From Escherichia phage pEC-M719-6WT.2: a stretch of DNA of 64,000 nt. The translations under genes were made by a program, and so were the position numbers. The notes below the pieces were generated by a model. It saw nothing but the letters and a program-made list of their open reading frames with translations. It was not told the origin of the DNA and made no database searches. Numbering within the stretch: position 1 is the first letter of the stretch; every line of letters begins with the position of its first letter. Below, piece by piece: positions 3,674 to 62,675 of the stretch. The stretch lies in sequence record OQ845958.1. One strand, 5' to 3'.

Positions 3674-3683
3674 CATTTAGGGG

Positions 3684-3713
3684 GTTTACATCCTCATAAA
3701 AAGGGTGTACTAT
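3684..3713 (+). promoter_or_regulatory. early promoter (GTTTACA -35, 17 nt, TACTAT -10) with conserved leader
   Basis: -35/-10 spacing of 17 nt; followed by conserved leader TATCCCATCAACTACTGAGGAG and ATG at 3742. Confidence 0.5.
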
Positions 3714-3741
3714 TATCCCATCAACTACTGAGGAGAATACA

Positions 3742-3945
3742 ATGAGAATTAAAAATATCAAGATTGATGCAGTTAATACTGGTGATGAGGTTGTTATCTA
3801 TCTTAATGATTATGCAATCTTTATGGACAGTGCCACTGATGAAGAAGTTGTTGAACTCTTACAGAAAGCTCCATTTGAACTGTGCGAAGAAGATGCTACT
3901 CATCTTTCATCAGCAATTTTCTCATTATCATATGTGGTGGAATAA
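3742..3945 (+). CDS. hypothetical protein
   Basis: 67 aa acidic ORF downstream of early promoter; SD GAGGAG. Confidence 0.45.
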   Translation: MRIKNIKIDAVNTGDEVVIYLNDYAIFMDSATDEEVVELLQKAPFELCEEDATHLSSAIFSLSYVVE

Positions 3946-7985: not shown

Positions 7986-8015
7986 GTGTACAACCAGATG
8001 GTCATGATGCATAAT
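7986..8015 (+). promoter_or_regulatory. early promoter (GTGTACA, 17 nt, CATAAT)
   Basis: followed by conserved leader GATTCCATACTGAGTTACCAAAT...GGAGAATAAAATG. Confidence 0.5.
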
Positions 8016-8056
8016 GATTCCATACTGAGTTACCAAATAAACAAACGGAGAATAAA

Positions 8057-8263
8057 ATGTTAGAATTAATCAAAGCTGCTGGTGAAAAAGGTCTGATGGT
8101 TAACACTCGTGACCCTGAACAACGTCAAGCATTTGGTGAGTTAAAAGCCAAAGGTCTGGTTAAAGCATCCCTTGGTATTGGTAATGCTTTGCGTGTGACT
8201 TTGACCCCTGCAGGTAAAGCAATGTTCTTCCCTAAACCATTACCAAAACGTCGTCGCAAGTGA
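8057..8263 (+). CDS. hypothetical basic protein
   Basis: 68 aa; C-terminal KRRRK; own early promoter. Confidence 0.45.
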   Translation: MLELIKAAGEKGLMVNTRDPEQRQAFGELKAKGLVKASLGIGNALRVTLTPAGKAMFFPKPLPKRRRK

Positions 8264-8269
8264 GGAATT

Positions 8270-8572
8270 ATGAAAAAGTATGAACTTGACATGATTGAGG
8301 CATGTCTGAAATCTGCTGACCATTTTAAGTTGAAAATGCACAAGTTAAGAGGAATGGTCAAAACCCCAGAAGAGAAGAAGCGATATGCTCTGAAGGAGAA
8401 ATGTAAAGCTCTTATCATGATGGATAAGTTGCAAATAGTCGCCGCAGAAGCCCACAGGACACGTAAGGCTGAGGCCCTTGGTGTTTATATGGCAGAGCAG
8501 CTACATCGCGCCCAGCAAGCCGTTAAGAGCGTCTGGTTCAGTGGTGAAAATACTGAAAGAACTTTTAATTAA
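8270..8572 (+). CDS. hypothetical protein
   Basis: 100 aa; SD GAGGAA. Confidence 0.45.
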   Translation: MKKYELDMIEACLKSADHFKLKMHKLRGMVKTPEEKKRYALKEKCKALIMMDKLQIVAAEAHRTRKAEALGVYMAEQLHRAQQAVKSVWFSGENTERTFN

Positions 8573-8574
8573 AT

Positions 8575-8604
8575 GTGTACATGGTATGGGGATAGACGTA
8601 TAAT
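8575..8604 (+). promoter_or_regulatory. early promoter (GTGTACA, 17 nt, TATAAT)
   Basis: same cassette and leader as at 7986; precedes ATG 8641. Confidence 0.5.
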
Positions 8605-8640
8605 GTTCCCATACTGAGTTACCAAATACTGGAGAATAAA

Positions 8641-9165
8641 ATGGAAGCTAAATCAATCTTTAATCTGATTAATTACAATAATGGTAATTTTAAATCAGAA
8701 GCACAAAGCAAGTTCTTTAATGATGTTGCTTGTGCGGGTGAGATTACAGTATCAGGTGGTCAGACTTATAAAAATGCCTGGAACTGGATTGTGACTGTTG
8801 ATTCAGTTGGTATTGTTGATGTGTATAAAAACACCAACAAAAACCGCTCTTTGTTCTGGTCAAGAGAGACTAATGCAGAATATCAGGCGGCAAGAGCGAA
8901 GAAAAATATGCCTACTGAATCTGATGTACAAAACATCAAATCAGATATCCAATATTATGATGGTCTGATTGCTGAACAACAAGCGGTGCTTGATAAGTTC
9001 AATGAAATCAAAGCATGTAAAGAGATTCCTGAATTCATGAGGGAATCAGTTAATGAACAATACAATCTCACTTCAGAGCGTATTGAAACCTATACCAAAC
9101 AAAGAGCAGAGCGCCAGGTACTCCTTCAGAAGTTTGAAGAGCGTTTAAAGACGGTTCTCGCATAA
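8641..9165 (+). CDS. hypothetical protein with C-terminal coiled coil
   Basis: 174 aa; heptad-rich C-terminus. Confidence 0.5.
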   Translation: MEAKSIFNLINYNNGNFKSEAQSKFFNDVACAGEITVSGGQTYKNAWNWIVTVDSVGIVDVYKNTNKNRSLFWSRETNAEYQAARAKKNMPTESDVQNIKSDIQYYDGLIAEQQAVLDKFNEIKACKEIPEFMRESVNEQYNLTSERIETYTKQRAERQVLLQKFEERLKTVLA

Positions 9166-18469: not shown

Positions 18470-18767
18470 GATTGAAATCTATGGTATCCCCGAAGAAGTC
18501 GGTCGATGCCCTGGTTGTATGCACGTCAGGGGCCTTCTGGGCTCCTTAAACCTTCCTTATACATTCTATTCAGTCCTTAACAAACAAGGCTCTGAAATCG
18601 CTTATGACAGGCCTTTAATCGTGTCTTTGGCTAAGCGTGGTGGATATCCTACTCTTAACATTCGTTACCCGGTGATTTTTGTCAATGATGAAAAAATGAC
18701 CAATATTCCTGCCTTTAAAACAAAACTGATATCCCTGGGGTACGACCAGGACTTAATTGAAGATTAA
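18450..18767 (+). CDS. nrdH: glutaredoxin-like protein (NrdH-like)
   Basis: 105 aa; apparent GTG start 8 nt after AAGGAG; CPGC redox motif near N-terminus. Confidence 0.55.
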   Translation: MGQNSTKIEIYGIPEEVGRCPGCMHVRGLLGSLNLPYTFYSVLNKQGSEIAYDRPLIVSLAKRGGYPTLNIRYPVIFVNDEKMTNIPAFKTKLISLGYDQDLIED

Positions 18768-18770
18768 AAA

Positions 18771-18804
18771 AGGGGTGTACAAGCCCCTTTGAACGGTGTA
18801 TCAT
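18771..18804 (+). promoter_or_regulatory. terminator-like hairpin with early promoter -35 in its loop
   Basis: AGGGG-TGTACAAG-CCCCT hairpin then TTT; GTGTACA (-35), 17 nt, TATCAT (-10), then conserved leader TATCCCATCAACTACTGA. Confidence 0.5.
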
Positions 18805-18835
18805 TATCCCATCAACTACTGATGAGGAAAACAAA

Positions 18836-19012
18836 ATGGTTATTGAAGATAAAGAAATTAAAGTCAACCAGTATTATTCAATCAACGGCAAAGCTGTTTT
18901 AGTAACTGAAATATCTAGCCTGGATGTGTGGTATACCATAATTGACCTTGGTATTAAAATGATTTGTGACCGTGGAGTGTTTTGTTCGATAGCTAAGGAA
19001 ATTAAATTATGA
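18836..19012 (+). CDS. small hypothetical protein (58 aa)
   Basis: hand-translated; follows conserved leader; ATGA overlap with next gene. Confidence 0.3.
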   Translation: MVIEDKEIKVNQYYSINGKAVLVTEISSLDVWYTIIDLGIKMICDRGVFCSIAKEIKL

Positions 19013-19904: not shown

Positions 19905-19926
19905 GGGGTCATGGTATAATGACCCC
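19905..19926 (+). promoter_or_regulatory. promoter -10 embedded in palindrome GGGGTCA...TGACCCC
   Basis: GGGGTCA tgg TATAAT GACCCC; same palindrome type as at 48758-48779 and 59968-59989. Confidence 0.4.
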
Positions 19927-37307: not shown

Positions 37308-37336
37308 TGTACAACAAAGGGATAATGCTGTATATT
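37307..37336 (+). promoter_or_regulatory. early promoter (GTGTACA, 17 nt, TATATT)
   Basis: followed by conserved leader ATCCCTATCAACTACTGAGGAG. Confidence 0.5.
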
Positions 37337-37364
37337 ATCCCTATCAACTACTGAGGAGATTGAA

Positions 37365-43028: not shown

Positions 43029-43589
43029 ATGAACATCATCAAATCTGATACCGAACCCAACCAGTTAAAATTTAGTGAAATGGAGATAGCTTCATTATTT
43101 GAATGCCGTACATCAAAGGTTGATAAGACCTTGCATTCAAATGTCAACTCAATCATCAAGTCAAGGTTGTCTATACCCGATACAGTCTTGTGGCGCGGGG
43201 TAACCCAGCAAGAGATTGATTTATTAGATGAAGCAAAAGAATCAATGCAACCTTTTGAATTTGGACGGGTAACCTCCTTTACAGAAGACTATGGTATTGC
43301 CAGGGATTTTGCTGCAATGGAATATGTGACAAGGACTATCGTCAGATTGAATCAGACCAAAGCTTTTTGTTACCATGATGCGATGCGCAAAATCGCACTT
43401 GATGTTCCACTTGAATTCTTCAATACAGCTTCTGGTTCCGCCCAGGCAGCTACATTAAGGCGTGAAGAATACATGGACATGATTGATTCTGAGCTTGAAT
43501 GGTTTGTTCCAGTTGACCAGAAATTCGTGGTAGTTGATGCTGGATTTATTGATGATTATTATGTTCTTGACTGTGTACAAGAGCAATAA
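43029..43589 (+). CDS. ADP-ribosyltransferase (ModA/ModB family)
   Basis: 186 aa; R-S-E triad elements: LWRG, TSFT, ELEW; located between soc and dda as T4 modA/modB. Confidence 0.65.
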   Translation: MNIIKSDTEPNQLKFSEMEIASLFECRTSKVDKTLHSNVNSIIKSRLSIPDTVLWRGVTQQEIDLLDEAKESMQPFEFGRVTSFTEDYGIARDFAAMEYVTRTIVRLNQTKAFCYHDAMRKIALDVPLEFFNTASGSAQAATLRREEYMDMIDSELEWFVPVDQKFVVVDAGFIDDYYVLDCVQEQ

Positions 43590-43602
43590 GACACGTTAAG
43601 AT
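43573..43602 (+). promoter_or_regulatory. early promoter inside 3-prime end of upstream gene (GTGTACA, 17 nt, TAAGAT)
   Basis: followed by conserved leader GTTCCTATCAACTACTGATGAGG; supports ATG 43634 as true start. Confidence 0.45.
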
Positions 43603-43633
43603 GTTCCTATCAACTACTGATGAGGATAATAAA

Positions 43634-44248
43634 ATGCTGTACACTGATGACGTTTTGAATGGAATTATTAACACTGCCGCTTCTAGTGAGTCTTTTCGTA
43701 ACCAATGTCAAGCGGAGATTGATGCTCTTTATACAGATAATGAGCAATCAGTACTCTGGCAGTGTATGGAAAATAAACCTGACCTGATTCAAGAAGACTT
43801 GTCCAGGATTATCCGCAACAATCTGAATACTGCACCGCCGGCAGCATTGTTCCGTGGTATATCAAAGAAAACCATGGAATACCTGGAAGATTTAAGATAT
43901 GTTGGTGCAACAATTGAATTCAATCGTGTAATGAGTTTTTCCAGGGACTGGCAGGTTGCAAGAAATTTCGCATCATACAGTTTCTATGGAACAAGGAACA
44001 TTTTCTGTATAAACAATGCACCATATGCGTATAACTATCAGGAAGCAATCTTCAAAATGATTTGTGGTGCTCCTCCTGAAGAGTTCAATGGTGCATATCC
44101 AGAAGCAACCAGGAAGTCAAACTTGCACCTGGTTAATGATGAAGATGAGTTTATGTTTCCCGCTGGGACTACGCTCCGCGTAGACTTGATTGAAACACAC
44201 CCATTGAATAACCTGTATACTGTTTGGCATTTAACTGTTTTGAACTAA
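43634..44248 (+). CDS. ADP-ribosyltransferase (ModA/ModB family)
   Basis: 204 aa; LFRG, MSFS, EDEF motifs; paralogous to upstream gene. Confidence 0.65.
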   Translation: MLYTDDVLNGIINTAASSESFRNQCQAEIDALYTDNEQSVLWQCMENKPDLIQEDLSRIIRNNLNTAPPAALFRGISKKTMEYLEDLRYVGATIEFNRVMSFSRDWQVARNFASYSFYGTRNIFCINNAPYAYNYQEAIFKMICGAPPEEFNGAYPEATRKSNLHLVNDEDEFMFPAGTTLRVDLIETHPLNNLYTVWHLTVLN

Positions 44249-46983: not shown

Positions 46984-47659
46984 TGCTATTATTGACTTTG
47001 AAACTCTGGGAAACGGCTCGAAGGGAGCCGTTATTGACCTGGCTCTGATTACATTCGAATCTGACCCTGCTATTGTGGAATCATTCGAAACCCTGGTTAA
47101 TCGCGGCAAACGTATCAAGTTTAGCCTTGAATACCAAAAAGGTAAGCGTCTGTTCGATACAACAACCATGGGTTGGTGGAAAAAGCAATCAGCAGAAGCC
47201 CGTGTTAACTTGGCTCCTTCTGCGCAAGATGTTGATACTCTGACCGGTATCCAACAGGCAATTGATTATCTGAATGGTAATGGAATTAACAAATACGAAA
47301 GCCTTATGTGGTGTCGTGGAATGTCTTTTGACTTCCCGTTGTTTGTTGACCTTATCCGTGACCTACAGCGCAATGAGGGTATTCCCGAGCGTGAATTGAA
47401 TACCTATGGCCTGGAGCCAGTTGTATTCTGGAACCAGCGAGATATCAGGACAGCAATCGAAGCCCTATCACTCGTCCGTAAGATGTGTGAAACTCCATTA
47501 CCAAAGGGGACTTTAGATGGATTTGTGGCGCATGATTCGGTGCATGACTGCGCGAAAGATATTTTGATGCTTAAGTATGCCCAGCGCTATGCTCTTGGTT
47601 TGGATGAAGTTCCTTCCGAAGAAGATGCAGACCCGTTATCTTTACCGAAAAAACGATAA
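46976..47659 (+). CDS. dexA: exonuclease A (DEDDh 3-prime to 5-prime exonuclease)
   Basis: 227 aa (same as T4 DexA); DFETLG Exo I motif and HDSVHDCAKD Exo III motif. Confidence 0.85.
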   Translation: MIDAIIDFETLGNGSKGAVIDLALITFESDPAIVESFETLVNRGKRIKFSLEYQKGKRLFDTTTMGWWKKQSAEARVNLAPSAQDVDTLTGIQQAIDYLNGNGINKYESLMWCRGMSFDFPLFVDLIRDLQRNEGIPERELNTYGLEPVVFWNQRDIRTAIEALSLVRKMCETPLPKGTLDGFVAHDSVHDCAKDILMLKYAQRYALGLDEVPSEEDADPLSLPKKR

Positions 47660-47665
47660 AAAGTA

Positions 47666-47695
47666 GTGTACAAGGCCAATGGAAAGAGACATAAT
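47666..47695 (+). promoter_or_regulatory. early promoter (GTGTACA, 17 nt, CATAAT)
   Basis: followed by conserved leader CATCTCATCAACTACTGATGAGG. Confidence 0.5.
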
Positions 47696-47726
47696 CATCT
47701 CATCAACTACTGATGAGGATAACAAA

Positions 47727-47984
47727 ATGATTACTTCTTTTGAAATTGGCCAACAATATGAAATGTCTGCTCTTCAAGCTGCTGAAGCAGGTCTGACTGA
47801 AGCGTTTGAATGTGCATTTACAAATATTCGTGGTAAAATCTTTACTGTCAATAAAATTGCGGTATATGATAAAGAAACAGACATGAACAAAGGCATCTAC
47901 TTGAACGTGTCAAACGCAAAAGGCCGTCGTGAAATTATGGTTGTACAACCTAACCAACTGGCGATGTTCAATAAGGTTACATAA
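47727..47984 (+). CDS. hypothetical protein
   Basis: 85 aa from ATG 47727. Confidence 0.4.
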   Translation: MITSFEIGQQYEMSALQAAEAGLTEAFECAFTNIRGKIFTVNKIAVYDKETDMNKGIYLNVSNAKGRREIMVVQPNQLAMFNKVT

Positions 47985-48736
47985 TGAAACCAGAATTTAT
48001 TGACTTTGATGTTGTAAGCATGTATGTTCGCCCAATTAAACCATTAAAACTTGAGAAACAAAATATGACTATTGAAATTAACAAAACTTATCAACTGATT
48101 GAACCTATTATTCAAAACGCAGCTATGGTTTCTGGGTATAATACTCTGACTGATGCTTTAGGCGAAGGTGAATTTATTGTTGAAACTTTTGTAAAAAGTA
48201 ACTGGTTTGATAAAGCATATATTTTGCATGCACGTCGCCTTGATACAAATGAAGTAGAAAAAATTATGGTTTATGAAGCTGAGATTGAACTCTTCAAAGA
48301 AGTTGAAGAAACTCCTATCAAAGTTGACAAAACCTATCAACTTGTTGGATATGGTGATTTTGATAATACTAATGCATTGAATGCCGGTTGGCGCGTACTG
48401 AAAGGTATTTTTGGATTTGCTCCATTTACCGTTAAAACAGTTAAGTACCACAATCACCAAAGCATCTTTGAATTTACTGCGGTCAATGAATCAGGTGACA
48501 ATCTTGAAGCCATCCTTTATCCGCGTGAATCTGTACTGCTGGAAGAAGTTAGCGAACTGGGTGACCCTATTGACTTGTTATGCAAACCAGTTCAAATCAA
48601 ACGCCCATTTAACAGTTCCATTTGTGGTTGGGTAACAGACCAGTGGATTGAAGATGGTGTTGAACTCCTGAACGTTGTCCATGCTGGTGAATTTACTGTT
48701 GTACCACGTTCTATGGTTGTTGAAATTTTTAATTAA
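47984..48736 (+). CDS. hypothetical protein with internal repeat and conserved C-terminal domain
   Basis: 250 aa; C-terminal 40 aa homologous to the next gene. Confidence 0.5.
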   Translation: MKPEFIDFDVVSMYVRPIKPLKLEKQNMTIEINKTYQLIEPIIQNAAMVSGYNTLTDALGEGEFIVETFVKSNWFDKAYILHARRLDTNEVEKIMVYEAEIELFKEVEETPIKVDKTYQLVGYGDFDNTNALNAGWRVLKGIFGFAPFTVKTVKYHNHQSIFEFTAVNESGDNLEAILYPRESVLLEEVSELGDPIDLLCKPVQIKRPFNSSICGWVTDQWIEDGVELLNVVHAGEFTVVPRSMVVEIFN

Positions 48737-48743
48737 ATTTAAA

Positions 48744-48779
48744 GTGTACAAACTCTTGGGGTCAGAGTATAATGACCCC
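48744..48779 (+). promoter_or_regulatory. early promoter with -10 inside palindrome (44-bp exact copy of 59953-59996)
   Basis: GTGTACA, 17 nt, TATAAT; GGGGTCA/TGACCCC arms flank the -10. Confidence 0.5.
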
Positions 48780-48815
48780 ACTGGAGAATAAACTTATTAA
48801 CCAAGAGAGAAAATT

Positions 48816-49370
48816 ATGAAAGTTGAAGCTGGTGATATTGTACGTGTTTCTAAAGAATCTCGTTCTAAAGCTGCTGGTCGTTTTGTTGAGGTTGCGGGTC
48901 TTCGCACTAATTTAGTAGGTGGAATTAAAGAAGTTAAAGTGCGTATCATTCCTAAAAATGGTCAGACTGAAACTCAATTGGCTTATGTGCATCCTAAATT
49001 CCTGGAATCAACCGAATTTACTGGATATATCGCTCCTGTGTCTGAGGAAGTTGAATCCCATGATGGATATGTGTGCGAAAGCAATGATATCCGTGGTGTA
49101 ATTGCTCAAGACGTTGAAACCATTGACCAGTCTCATGTTGGGGTTGATTTTAAATGGAAATTGGGCAAAGGTGTCTTTTTTGTTTCACCTAAACCGTTTG
49201 AATACAATTGCATGTACGGTCCGACTTATGAAACCACTAGCATGTCTGGTTACATCACAGACCAGTGGGTTGAAGAAGGTGTCAAACTGTATAATATCGT
49301 ATTCCTTGGAACCTTTAAGGTTGTTCCTGAGAGCTTTATCGTTGAGTATGCCGATATTCATTTTGCCTAA
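48816..49370 (+). CDS. hypothetical protein, paralog of 47984-48736 C-terminal domain
   Basis: 184 aa; ...SGYITDQWVEEGVKLYNIVFLGTFKVVPESFIVE. Confidence 0.5.
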   Translation: MKVEAGDIVRVSKESRSKAAGRFVEVAGLRTNLVGGIKEVKVRIIPKNGQTETQLAYVHPKFLESTEFTGYIAPVSEEVESHDGYVCESNDIRGVIAQDVETIDQSHVGVDFKWKLGKGVFFVSPKPFEYNCMYGPTYETTSMSGYITDQWVEEGVKLYNIVFLGTFKVVPESFIVEYADIHFA

Positions 49371-52956: not shown

Positions 52957-52982
52957 AAAAGGACCTTCGGGTCCTTTTTTAT
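52957..52982 (+). terminator. rho-independent terminator
   Basis: GGACC-TTCG-GGTCC hairpin plus T6. Confidence 0.6.
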
Positions 52983-58190: not shown

Positions 58191-58200
58191 TCAAAAAGTA

Positions 58201-58230
58201 GTGTACATCAGTATGGAGTCTATGTATAAT
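58201..58230 (+). promoter_or_regulatory. early promoter (GTGTACA, 17 nt, TATAAT) flanked by inverted repeat
   Basis: CAGTATGGA (58209-58217) and TCCATACTG (58234-58242) flank the -10. Confidence 0.5.
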
Positions 58231-58266
58231 GATTCCATACTGAGTTACCAAATACTGGAGAATAAA

Positions 58267-58422
58267 ATGAAACCTGCTCAATATGCAATGACTTTATACC
58301 TTGAAGTTAATGGCGATATTACTGAATTTTTTAAATTAATGCAACAGCGTGGAAAAAGTTTTGCAGTTACTGAGCGTCAATTTTACGCATGTCGCAAAAA
58401 TACATACAATCGTTATGCATGA
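58267..58422 (+). CDS. small hypothetical protein (51 aa)
   Basis: internal ATG of track ORF 58144-58422 following conserved leader. Confidence 0.35.
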   Translation: MKPAQYAMTLYLEVNGDITEFFKLMQQRGKSFAVTERQFYACRKNTYNRYA

Positions 58423-58789: not shown

Positions 58790-58818
58790 GTGTACATCTC
58801 CAGTGGTTGTAGTATAAT
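58790..58818 (+). promoter_or_regulatory. early promoter (GTGTACA, 16 nt, TATAAT)
   Basis: followed by leader GAACCTATCAACTACTGGAG. Confidence 0.45.
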
Positions 58819-58844
58819 GAACCTATCAACTACTGGAGATGATT

Positions 58845-58961
58845 ATGAAAAAGTTACTTAAAGCCATTTGGAACATGTTTGTACTGTTTGTTGTCCTGAG
58901 CATTTTCCCAATTGTTTTTATGATTGACCATGTGCGTGTTTACTTTAACTATTTCTTTTGA
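58845..58961 (+). CDS. small membrane peptide (38 aa)
   Basis: hand-translated; one TM helix. Confidence 0.25.
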   Translation: MKKLLKAIWNMFVLFVVLSIFPIVFMIDHVRVYFNYFF

Positions 58962-58971
58962 GGATAATATT

Positions 58972-59178
58972 ATGAATTACAATTCACAATTTCAGAAATC
59001 CAATCGTCGCTTTGACTTTATGTTCAAGTTTATTGTGGCGATGATTATCCTGATTTTCATTGGTGCCATTGCAATGATTGGTTTCCAGCTCTGGATTGCT
59101 GCTGAAGTGTTCACACAAATCCAGGATAATGGTTTGAAGTCTGTTGTTGATGTAATTTGGAATGGAGCTAAGCAATGA
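58972..59178 (+). CDS. small membrane protein
   Basis: 68 aa from ATG 58972 (SD GAGGA); long hydrophobic helix. Confidence 0.4.
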   Translation: MNYNSQFQKSNRRFDFMFKFIVAMIILIFIGAIAMIGFQLWIAAEVFTQIQDNGLKSVVDVIWNGAKQ

Positions 59179-59420
59179 AACTTTTTAAAGACATTGCAGT
59201 TGGTGAAAAATTTGTCCTTGGTAATGGTCAACAACTGATTCGCATTTCGCCTTTAATGGATAACAGCGAGCGCCCTGTGCGCACTGAAAACTGTTTGGAT
59301 TATCCTTTTTATCAGAAGCGTTTTGCAATTGAAAATAATACTGAGTGCTTCACGGTTGATGAACTGATGGAATCATCAGAAGAAGTTGACTTGTGGGATG
59401 GCGCGGTAGACCCTGAATAA
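59175..59420 (+). CDS. hypothetical protein
   Basis: 81 aa; ATGA overlap. Confidence 0.4.
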   Translation: MKLFKDIAVGEKFVLGNGQQLIRISPLMDNSERPVRTENCLDYPFYQKRFAIENNTECFTVDELMESSEEVDLWDGAVDPE

Positions 59421-59435
59421 ACTGAGGAAAATATT

Positions 59436-59582
59436 ATGGACAATAGAATTTATAAAGTAAAGCTTCATGGTAAAGTGATTAAAACTCTTAGTTTTAATGC
59501 GTATATTAGCGCAAATTGTGCGCGGGATATCCTCATTGAGGAAGGTTACAGCAAGTACATTCAGATTGAAGAAGTTCTTTAA
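59436..59582 (+). CDS. small hypothetical protein (48 aa)
   Basis: hand-translated; SD GAGGAA. Confidence 0.25.
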   Translation: MDNRIYKVKLHGKVIKTLSFNAYISANCARDILIEEGYSKYIQIEEVL

Positions 59583-59609
59583 AAAGGTTTACTTACTGGG
59601 GAAAATATT

Positions 59610-59954
59610 ATGTCTAAAGTATTTTTTGGTAATGCTAAAGTTATGTTCTTTAAACAGATTAGCCTTCAGGAGGCGTCGGAGGCATTCAATCAAAGTATGA
59701 TTCCTGACGTACATCCAAAAGTTATGACGAGTGCTGATTTCGTTTTCGTCCAAGACCCGGAAACAGGCTTTTATCGGTTCATTAAATTTCGTATGAGTAT
59801 GGAGCCAGGTTATCATAGTGCTTACTACGTGAGTTATGAAAATGTTATCAAAGAATTGCGTAATACCTATAAGCGCGCTTTGACCCCGCTGAATAAGGTG
59901 TATAATGCTTCCTTTTATACGAGCGGATTTATTTTAGAACAGCTTCAAAAATAG
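59610..59954 (+). CDS. hypothetical protein
   Basis: 114 aa. Confidence 0.45.
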   Translation: MSKVFFGNAKVMFFKQISLQEASEAFNQSMIPDVHPKVMTSADFVFVQDPETGFYRFIKFRMSMEPGYHSAYYVSYENVIKELRNTYKRALTPLNKVYNASFYTSGFILEQLQK

Positions 59955-59989
59955 TGTACAAACTCTTGGGGTCAGAGTATAATGACCCC
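59954..59989 (+). promoter_or_regulatory. early promoter with -10 inside palindrome (44-bp exact copy of 48743-48786)
   Basis: GTGTACA, 17 nt, TATAAT flanked by GGGGTCA/TGACCCC. Confidence 0.5.
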
Positions 59990-60027
59990 ACTGGAGCAAA
60001 AAACTTTAACTTACTGAGGAAATTAAT

Positions 60028-60477
60028 ATGACTACTTACATGACCCGTCGTGACGTACTGAATGCTGGTGCTACCACTGTTGCTTATATCCATAATGGTA
60101 ATTATGTTGCCGGTCGCCCAACTAAAGAAGCTATCACTCAACCAGGTTTTTATTTCGTGGTTAAAGGTGAAGGTGAATCGCGTATTGTTGCCGCACGTTT
60201 TTATGTTGGTAACCAACGTTCACAACAAGGGTTTGACACTGTATTAAGTCACATCCGCAAACAGCGTTCTCAACTGTCTCGCACAATGGCGAACAATGGG
60301 GTTATCTATGAAGTCCTGTTTGTCCCAGTTTCTAAAATGAAACCTCTGACAACTGGTTATGGTAAAGGTCAAATTGCAATGGCGTTCACTCGCTCGCATA
60401 GTTCTGATTGCCAGACCCTTTCAGAAATGAATCGCATGCTTGCTGATAACTTTAAATTCATTCTGCAGAGCTATTAA
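60028..60477 (+). CDS. hypothetical protein
   Basis: 149 aa. Confidence 0.5.
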
Positions 60478-62240: not shown

Positions 62241-62335
62241 GTTTTGGAGTTGAGTTTGCATTGCTTTGTATTTTCGCGGCAATCGCAGGTGTGATTGTTG
62301 GTATGTTTATTGGTAATAAGATAGATAAAGACTAG
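62237..62335 (+). CDS. small membrane peptide (32 aa)
   Basis: hand-translated; ATGA overlap with gene 52 stop. Confidence 0.2.
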   Translation: MSFGVEFALLCIFAAIAGVIVGMFIGNKIDKD

Positions 62336-62357
62336 GACCCTTCGGGGTCCTTTTTTA
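62335..62357 (+). terminator. rho-independent terminator
   Basis: GGACCC-TTCG-GGGTCC hairpin plus T6. Confidence 0.65.
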
Positions 62358-62380: not shown

Positions 62381-62410
62381 GTGTACATGACCCTTGACCT
62401 GATGCATAAT
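62381..62410 (+). promoter_or_regulatory. early promoter (GTGTACA, 17 nt, CATAAT)
   Basis: AAAAGTAGTGTACA box and GATTCCATACTGAGTTAC leader. Confidence 0.5.
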
Positions 62411-62459
62411 GATTCCATACTGAGTTACAAACTGAATCACAAAAACTTTGGAGAATAAA

Positions 62460-62675
62460 ATGTTTACTGCACAACAGAATGAAGGTCAAGAATACATTAA
62501 CGCTAAATTCAAATCTAATAAAGAAGCTTGCTATTATTACTTTGACATGTTCAAACTGGCGAATTCTAAAGAAGAACGTAAACAAGCGATTGATGTTATT
62601 GTTTCTACTTCCCATATGAAACGTACTGTGGTACAATCATATGCATCAAATTACATGAAATCTATTAAGGGATAA
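62460..62675 (+). CDS. hypothetical protein
   Basis: 71 aa from ATG 62460 (SD GGAGAA). Confidence 0.4.
   Translation: MFTAQQNEGQEYINAKFKSNKEACYYYFDMFKLANSKEERKQAIDVIVSTSHMKRTVVQSYASNYMKSIKG

Follow-up and report, generated by a model that had tools for sequence, protein, structure and literature searches.

A duplicated 44-bp early promoter cassette with a stem-loop over the -10 hexamer in a T4-like Escherichia phage

The exact 44-bp repeat (AGTGTACAAACTCTTGGGGTCAGAGTATAATGACCCCACTGGAG) that lies upstream of motB and ndd in the window, by which is meant the whole 64,000-nucleotide stretch of Escherichia phage pEC-M719-6WT.2 (OQ845958.1) analysed here, is probably a PeSL cassette of a T4-like phage, the hairpin of which acts in RNA that reads through from upstream, and the copies of which exchange sequence by recombination. 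The repeat is real and non-random, and it belongs, in a form specific to its clade, to a class of phage regulatory cassettes that is already known. The palindrome around its -10 hexamer is best read, on the evidence of sequence comparison, as an RNA hairpin in read-through transcripts, and its role would then be exerted at the RNA level. The initial annotation had instead proposed that the palindrome is an operator for a dimeric repressor which controls a co-regulated subset of early promoters; this is not supported, because at orthologous sites the arms have been swapped freely with compensation, and the comparative data favour the alternative which that annotation had itself named as a refutation, namely that the palindrome amounts to no more than an RNA hairpin in transcripts that read through.

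PeSLs (promoter-early stem-loops; Arbiol et al. 2010, PMC2839356; Comeau et al. 2014, PMC4122927) are composite cassettes made up of a stop codon in an A/T-rich region, a sigma-70-like early promoter, a stem-loop, and a Shine-Dalgarno sequence with its ATG. In the PeSLs of phages RB49 and phi1, both promoter activity and terminator or attenuator activity have been measured with lacZ fusions, and recombination between copies generates mini-circles (PMC2839356). Degraded half-PeSLs and middle-promoter versions (PmSLs) have also been described (PMC4122927), and PeSL-like sequences have been noted in JS98. No description of PeSLs in the VR7/SP18 clade was found in the literature.

Phage context and anatomy of the repeat

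T4-like phages of the VR7/VR20/VR25/VR26/SP18/vB_YenM_P8 group match the window at 90-99% identity, and the genes of the window run in the order tk, nrdD, 55, 47, 46, 45, 44, 62, regA, 43, uvsX, 41, 61, modA/B, srd, dda, dexA, motB, cef, goF, 39, rIIA, rIIB, denB, ndd, ac, 52, motA. From this order it is clear that the + strand is the early-gene direction. In the record of the closest relative, vB_YenM_P8 (PP693301.1), many product names are evidently wrong: a run of unrelated ORFs is labelled "thioredoxin", for instance, and small ORFs close to ndd are labelled "naphthalene 1,2-dioxygenase" and "clamp loader small subunit". The product names of that record were not used as evidence.

A search of the window locates two exact copies of the 44-mer, both on the + strand and about 11 kb apart, and no additional copies at up to 3 mismatches; none occurred in 100 dinucleotide-preserving shuffles. 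The parts of the two copies are as follows.

48743-48786, + strand: PeSL copy 1, between a MotB-like gene (47984-48736) and motB (ATG 48816); -35 TGTACA 48745-48750, 5' arm TGGGGTCA 48757-48764, -10 TATAAT 48768-48773, 3' arm TGACCCCA 48773-48780, and GGAG 48783-48786, which runs on as GGAGAATAAAC.
59953-59996, + strand: PeSL copy 2, the identical 44 bp, with the ndd ATG at 60028; -35 59955-59960, 5' arm 59967-59974, -10 59978-59983, 3' arm 59983-59990, GGAG 59993-59996.

The claim that an exact duplicate stands 5' of two unrelated genes is borne out: the gene at about 48816-49367 encodes MotB (Pfam 5.5e-49) and that at 60028-60474 encodes Ndd (Pfam 9.6e-69), and the sequences flanking the two copies are unrelated to each other. 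Copy 1 itself sits between tandem paralogues (47984-48736 and 48816-49370) with related C-termini, which have in common a 48-nt stretch (48619-48666 / 49241-49288) of 79% identity; for the 250-aa protein encoded upstream, the match to the Pfam motB model is limited to the C-terminal part of the model.

The pattern GGGGTCA-N8-TGACCCC occurs three times in the window (at 19905, 48758 and 59968), compared to a shuffle mean of 0.07 and to 0 of 100 shuffles with three occurrences; with a 9-nt loop the pattern has no match in the window, the actual loop being 8 nt long. This search confirms that the -10 TATAAT is flanked by GGGGTCA and TGACCCC in both copies of the 44-mer, and the 7-bp arms described in the initial annotation are thus present, but their length has to be corrected to 8 bp (TGGGGTCA/TGACCCCA). 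The 5' arm lies inside the promoter spacer, the loop is GAGTATAA, and the 3' arm starts at the last T of the -10 hexamer and fills the discriminator. As RNA, the 44-mer hairpin has a folding energy of -18.3 kcal/mol (z = -3.2), and in the fold the CUCU at 48753-56 is able to pair with the GGAG at 48783-86, which lengthens the stem.

That the 44-mer is a promoter, as had been supposed, is supported by its consensus match, which consists of TGTACA-17-TATAAT at 48745-48773 and 59955-59983 with a score of 10/12 in a scan for T4-type early promoters, by the A/T-rich sequence upstream, and by its location on the early-gene strand, 43-50 nt 5' of a start codon. Counted from the -10, the start codon follows 43-45 nt downstream. 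Beyond the sigma-70-type early promoter, which is intergenic and on the early-gene strand at both sites, the other parts of a PeSL can be recognised. Both copies have an A/T-rich stretch and an upstream stop codon 5' of the -35, copy 1 being preceded by ...GAAATTTTTAATTAAATTTAA with a stop codon at 48734-36, and copy 2 by the TAG (59952-59954) of the upstream ORF, which lies inside AAAAATAG and overlaps the first bases of the repeat. A stable stem-loop in or beside the promoter is indicated by the fold, by the excess of hairpins in promoters and by covariation (see below). At the 3' end there is a Shine-Dalgarno sequence and a start codon (AGAGAG and then ATG 48816 for motB, GAGGA and then ATG 60028 for ndd), and the cassette is repeated as a family of similar cassettes, since the direct-repeat families D1-D4, D6 and D7 of the window are promoter cassettes.

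Judged from the usual distance to the -10, the predicted start of transcription is about A48780 and A59990, where the 3' arm ends. RNA made from the cassette's own promoter would consequently lack the hairpin, which could be contained only in RNA that reads through from upstream, and with this placement of +1 the geometry rules out a hairpin in the cassette's own 5' UTR. Two other identities for the hairpin were considered and rejected. A canonical intrinsic terminator does not fit the 44-mer, because the hairpin is followed by ACTGGAG rather than by a U tract and because a terminator scan of the window did not call it, and a known RNA family does not fit because Rfam gives 0 matches at the gathering score anywhere in the window.

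Other cassettes in the window

A promoter scan combined with a repeat search identifies about 19 early-promoter cassettes on the + strand of the window, in three families that differ in their transcribed leader. These families form the largest direct repeats in the window, and the 44-mer pair together with the element at 19905 makes up family D6. In most of the cassettes a stem-loop covers the -10 or the -35 or sits in the spacer. The four elements to which the initial annotation had drawn attention exist, but they are part of this larger set, in which 11 of the 17 promoters tested have a strong hairpin. The excess is evident at two thresholds: 11/17 promoters fold at or below -10 kcal/mol in 55 nt, as against 28% of random 55-mers from the window (Mann-Whitney p = 0.002), and 6/17 at or below -15 kcal/mol, as against 4.8%. 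In the 17 promoters that were folded, the stem-loop lies around the -10 at 8599, 19915, 37331, 48768, 58225, 58813 and 59978 (and, more weakly, at 8010), around the -35 of promoters 18799 and 36514, and within the spacer at 32253, and the arms vary from promoter to promoter.

19905-19926, + strand: third copy of the hairpin, GGGGTCA-TGGTATAA-TGACCCC; -10 19915-19920, TG 19912-13, no -35.
58193-58269, + strand: second-family PeSL with leader GATTCCATACTGAGTTACCAA; -35 58202-58207, -10 58225-58230, ATG 58267.
58208-58217 and 58234-58243, + strand: arms TCAGTATGGA and TCCATACTGA of the 58225 cassette; -21.8 kcal/mol, z -3.95.
8567-8643, + strand: second-family PeSL; stem-loop at about 8582-8616 around the -10 at 8599-8604.
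37318-37342, + strand: stem-loop AGGGATAAT/ATTATCCCT around the -10 (37331) of an early promoter of the third leader family.
18769-18790, + strand: stem-loop AAAGGGGT/GCCCCTTT around the -35 of the promoter with its -10 at 18799.
36484-36504, + strand: terminator-like stem-loop AAAGGGGCT/AGCCCCTTT with a T run, around the -35 of the promoter with its -10 at 36514.
32236-32253, + strand: stem-loop ACGGCAA/TTGCCGT in the -35/-10 spacer, -10 at 32253.
59575-59612, + strand: degraded cassette, a GGTTTAC remnant fused directly to a Shine-Dalgarno sequence and ATG.

The element at 19905-19926 had been described as a third promoter with the same arms, and the arms are indeed the same, but it has no recognisable -35 and carries an extended -10 (TGgTATAAT) in its place. 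It lies upstream of the DUF7570 gene (ATG 19969) and folds at -15.7 kcal/mol (z -4.4); at the orthologous site JS98 has a full cassette of the same family. Likewise, a different inverted repeat does bracket the -10 of the promoter at 58201-58242, with arms of 10 bp and not the 9 bp that had been reported. At the position of the 59575-59612 remnant, VR26 has a complete PeSL with the arms GGGAGCA/TGTTCCC.

The third cassette family, with the leader (C/T)ATCAACTACTGATGAGGA, comprises the stretches 3676-3751, 18767-18842, 32221-32296, 36482-36557, 37324-37358, 43565-43640, 47658-47733 and 58806-58840, and its CAUCA-ACUAC-UGAUG could form a small 5'-UTR hairpin adjoining the Shine-Dalgarno sequence. 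The window also holds classical UUCG-tetraloop terminators with T runs at 52957-52978 and 62334-62351, of which the second reads on both strands and stands about 30 nt 5' of the promoter cassette at 62382-62410; a stem-loop upstream of the promoter is the arrangement described for the PeSLs of T4/PST.

Comparative evidence at orthologous sites

Orthologous intergenic regions were taken from IMG/VR for three sites, those of ndd, motB and the DUF7570 gene; regions for the motB site were located by tblastn, because in a search by locus the matches of the MotB protein merge with those to the upstream MotB-like paralogue. The check that had been proposed, a search for the same element in related genomes, finds it: the 44-mer itself is restricted to a single clade, in which 32 records carry it at 1-3 places each, and other clades keep its pairing and geometry at orthologous sites with entirely different arms. 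The sole record with three places is PQ671644.1 (Escherichia phage DCP80, 140,978 bp), which is about 30 kb shorter than its relatives and may represent either a variant with a deletion or rearrangement or an assembly that is not complete.

Upstream of ndd, VR20, VR25 and VR26 carry the same 44-mer, while JS98-like phages have CGAGAATCA-TGTTATAA-TGGTTCTCG, in which the geometry is the same, the arms are unrelated and one pair is U·G; in T4-type phages, T4 included, the hairpin is GGCCG(C/U)-loop-GCGGCC and a promoter is absent. In two T4-type relatives (L011 and L012), the loop of the hairpin about 70 nt upstream of ndd, GGCCGC-GTATTCAT-GCGGCC, is exactly reverse-complemented in one with respect to the other (ATGAATAC), which indicates an inversion within the hairpin. 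At the motB site, VR25 and VR26 have GGGGCCA/TGGTCCC, so that a T-A pair is now C-G and a new G·U pair has been added, and JS98-like phages have GAGAGCCA/TGGCTCTC, with G·U variants. At the DUF7570 site, other clades have TGAGGAC/GTCCTCA around TATAAT, and further clades have MotA-box-like middle promoters in which the -10 is enclosed by a hairpin of other sequence, again with G·U variants. In the more distant T4-like phages the MotA-box-like TTTGCTATA is 12 nt from the hairpin-enclosed -10, about 40-75 nt upstream of the start codon, and this arrangement resembles the published PmSL.

The cassette family AACTCTTGGGnnCAGAGTATAATGnnCCC is found at no fewer than five different sites across the relatives (at least 5) in five compensated arm versions. 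A single genome, that of VR26, contains three of them: GGGGTCA/TGACCCC at ndd, GGGGCCA/TGGTCCC at motB, and GGGAGCA/TGTTCCC one gene upstream of ndd. A fourth (GGGAGCA/TGCTCCC) is found in VR25 and a fifth (GGGACCA/TGGTCCC) in JS98.

Covariation was evaluated in an alignment of 14 distinct sequences from the three orthologous sites and several clades, anchored on the -10. In the 8-pair helix, 94.4% of the cells are paired, compared to 79.5 +/- 2.2 in shuffles (0 of 500 as high) and to 32-46% in slid controls in which the 3' partner was moved by 1-3 columns. Compensatory double changes, in which both sides have changed, are present in 5 of the 8 pairs (22 cells). The non-Watson-Crick pairs inside the stem are 6 G·U on the + strand (7 with the outermost pair), with 0 A·C and 0 others, and orthologues of the middle-promoter type contribute 6 additional G·U cells and 0 other mismatches. 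The compensatory changes and the strand specificity of the G·U pairs argue, as comparative evidence, that the stem has been selected as a sense-strand RNA helix. A hairpin of sense-strand single-stranded DNA may also be compatible with the G·U bias, G·T being the least destabilising mismatch in single-stranded DNA.

Recombination and gene shuffling

The suggestion that the identical copies could act as recombination points, a role already published for PeSLs, receives moderate support. It is favoured by concerted evolution and by the spread of the cassette: identity between copies within a genome is 100% in this clade and 75% in JS98-like phages, compared to 41-47% for orthologues between clades, and copies within a genome that are more alike than orthologues are the pattern predicted by concerted evolution. 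It is not favoured by the positions of the indel and replacement breakpoints that distinguish the window from P8. For these 15 events there is no enrichment near cassettes (median distance 2076 nt, compared to 1135 for random positions, with 1/15 within 100 nt), and an association of the cassettes with indel breakpoints is not seen in this comparison, so that the case for a recombination role is carried by concerted evolution and local examples. The recombination itself would be an event read back from the sequences.

Such local examples are that close relatives do not have the same gene immediately after the 58225 cassette, and that the degraded cassette at 59575-59612 stands where VR26 has a complete one. 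The 51-codon ORF found there in the window (58267-58422) is absent in VR20 and VR25, in which the join is at a GGAG...ATG microhomology, and VR26 has another insert, about 200 bp long, in its place. A 48-codon ORF (59436-59582; window 59423-59582) is found in VR20 on the other side of the 58959-59438 block, and the junctions between which it has moved are about 15 nt long and are ribosome-binding-site look-alikes (GAGGAAAATATTATG), not promoter cassettes.

Discussion

The proposed mechanism is that of a compact intergenic module of about 80 nt, in which an upstream stop codon in an A/T-rich UP region would be followed by a sigma-70 early promoter, a G+C-rich stem-loop, a leader with GGAG, a Shine-Dalgarno sequence and the start codon. 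The hairpin would be superimposed on the promoter because in an intergenic space of this size nothing but the spacer and the discriminator can vary freely, and these free positions are the only ones that the arms are proposed to occupy. Forming solely in RNA that reads through from upstream promoters, the hairpin would most likely attenuate or terminate transcription or protect the upstream message at its 3' end; given the lack of a U tract, termination here would have to be of a non-canonical kind, and a role in 3'-end protection or in pausing is equally possible. Insulation of this kind would leave the expression of motB and ndd to be set by their own strong promoter. Copies in direct orientation would exchange sequence by homologous recombination or gene conversion, which would explain the identity of two copies that are 11 kb apart.

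It is extremely unlikely that the palindrome is instead an operator, at which a phage or host protein would bind the duplex over the -10 and shut off the early promoters of motB, ndd and the DUF7570 gene. The dyad symmetry centred on the -10 is the classic layout for such a site, the same arms are present at three sites of the window, and the mechanism of T4 early shut-off is understood only in part, but an operator should retain its half-sites within one genome, and VR26 has three versions of the arms, while JS98-like phages keep the geometry at orthologous sites with arms that are unrelated. Deviations from a DNA dyad should also be unbiased, whereas inside the stem the 6 imperfect pairs are without exception G·U on the + strand, which break the symmetry of the DNA but preserve an RNA helix. 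In the other promoters of the window the arms are unrelated and lie over the -10 or the -35 or inside the spacer, and the hairpin is present in T4 without a promoter and elsewhere with MotA-type middle promoters. A dyad-symmetric protein site can also covary if the protein changes its specificity; the strand asymmetry of the G·U pairs, the diversity of arms within one genome and the fact that the hairpin outlives the promoter make the case against this.

A structure at the level of DNA, whether a cruciform or a fold of single-stranded DNA during replication or recombination, which would aid melting of the -10 or create a recombination hot spot (as a target of endonuclease VII, for instance), is unlikely, although published PeSL stem-loops stall sequencing polymerases on single-stranded DNA and crossovers have been mapped in or beside the loop. 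The inverted loop of the ndd hairpin in L012 relative to L011 is what strand switching within a hairpin predicts, and the copies evolve in concert. A cruciform, on the other hand, requires both strands to fold, and each G·U of the sense strand is an A·C mismatch on the other; stems of 7-8 bp with 8-nt loops are poor cruciform formers, and indel breakpoints are not enriched at cassettes between the window and P8. Concerted evolution, along with the exactness of the copies and the limitation of the 44-mer to one clade, also agrees with a hairpin that does nothing by itself, in which case the palindrome and the identical copies would simply be the product of a recent duplication or gene conversion of the promoter cassette. 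This is very unlikely, because recent copying cannot yield compensatory double substitutions at 5 of 8 pairs, and it explains neither the pairing kept at orthologous sites whose arms have no sequence in common nor the general excess of hairpins in the promoters of the window.

A more specific proposal within an RNA-level role, that the hairpin and the terminal GGAG of the 44-mer form one RNA-processing module tied to the endoribonuclease RegB, is suggested by sequence matches but must be considered improbable. The published consensus for strong RegB cleavage is GGAGRAYARAA, to which the window has five perfect matches (GGAGAATAAAA), compared to 0.44 expected, all of them on the + strand.

8047-8057, 8631-8641, 36536-36546, 58257-58267 and 62450-62460, + strand: RegB-consensus sites, each the Shine-Dalgarno sequence of an early cassette (58257-58267 being that of the 58225 cassette).

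The GGAGAATAAAC of copy 1 (48783-48793) matches the consensus at 10/11 positions and lies about 30 nt 5' of the real motB Shine-Dalgarno sequence, and T4 has the same order of hairpin and then GGAG upstream of ndd (hairpin-UU-GGAG). The regB gene was not found among the window ORFs scanned; synteny with T4 places it just 5' of the window, and the RegB homologue of P8 (Pfam 2.9e-72) is about 0.8 kb before the point that matches the window start. Under this proposal the hairpin would cap the upstream message in read-through RNA, with the outer CUCU·GGAG pairs masking the GGAG, whereas in RNA from the cassette's own promoter the GGAG would be exposed at +4 to +7, and RegB could remove the 5' triphosphate end and thereby trigger a timed decay of the messages from motB and ndd. 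Such decay, if it occurs, would strike the messages for two early proteins that are toxic to the host.

The reading preferred here, that of a PeSL with a read-through hairpin, places the 44-mer alongside several described systems. The PeSLs of RB49 and phi1 (PMC2839356) have the same cassette build, with a stem-loop (GN-loop-CN) that is often between the -35 and -10 or over the -10, and they resemble those of this clade in the G-T pairs of their stems and in their many repeats in early regions. They differ in the -35, which is TTGACA in RB49/phi1 and TGTACA or GTTTAC in this VR7/VR20/SP18/P8-like clade, in the leaders, which here form three clade-specific families, and in genomic setting, since the exact 44-bp pair here is 11 kb apart and flanks core early genes and not a single ORFan. 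Promoter and terminator activity and the formation of mini-circles are measured properties of the RB49/phi1 elements; the cassettes of this clade are described from sequence. The PeSLs of T4/PST and the PeSLs and PmSLs of the vibriophages nt-1 and KVP40 (PMC4122927) embody the same idea of a composite promoter and terminator; half-PeSLs (PMC4122927) are comparable to 59575-59612, and PmSLs resemble the MotA-box hairpins at the DUF7570 site of other T4-like phages. In T4/PST the stem-loop is just upstream of the promoter, whereas here it is mostly around the -10, and the arm consensus also differs.

Intrinsic terminators likewise have a G+C-rich hairpin right after a gene, and the 18769-18790 and 36484-36504 cassettes have the T run as well and qualify as such terminators, but the hairpin of the 44-mer is followed by ACUGGAG and no U tract. 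Palindromic operators that overlap the -10, such as those of LexA or phage repressors, have the same dyad symmetry centred on the hexamer; they differ in that here the half-sites are unconserved, the asymmetries are G·U and strand-specific, and the position relative to the promoter is variable.

No new regulatory principle is revealed by these results. What is new is a further phage clade with three families of cassettes, together with covariation evidence for a sense-strand RNA stem, which the original PeSL papers assumed without a covariation test. For annotation, the consequence is that a palindrome of this kind over the -10 box of a T4-like phage promoter is not to be labelled an operator. 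PeSLs are believed to make accessory genes of T4-like phages exchangeable, as units that bring their own promoter and insulator, and to keep the expression of toxic early genes, ndd and motB among them, within tight limits.
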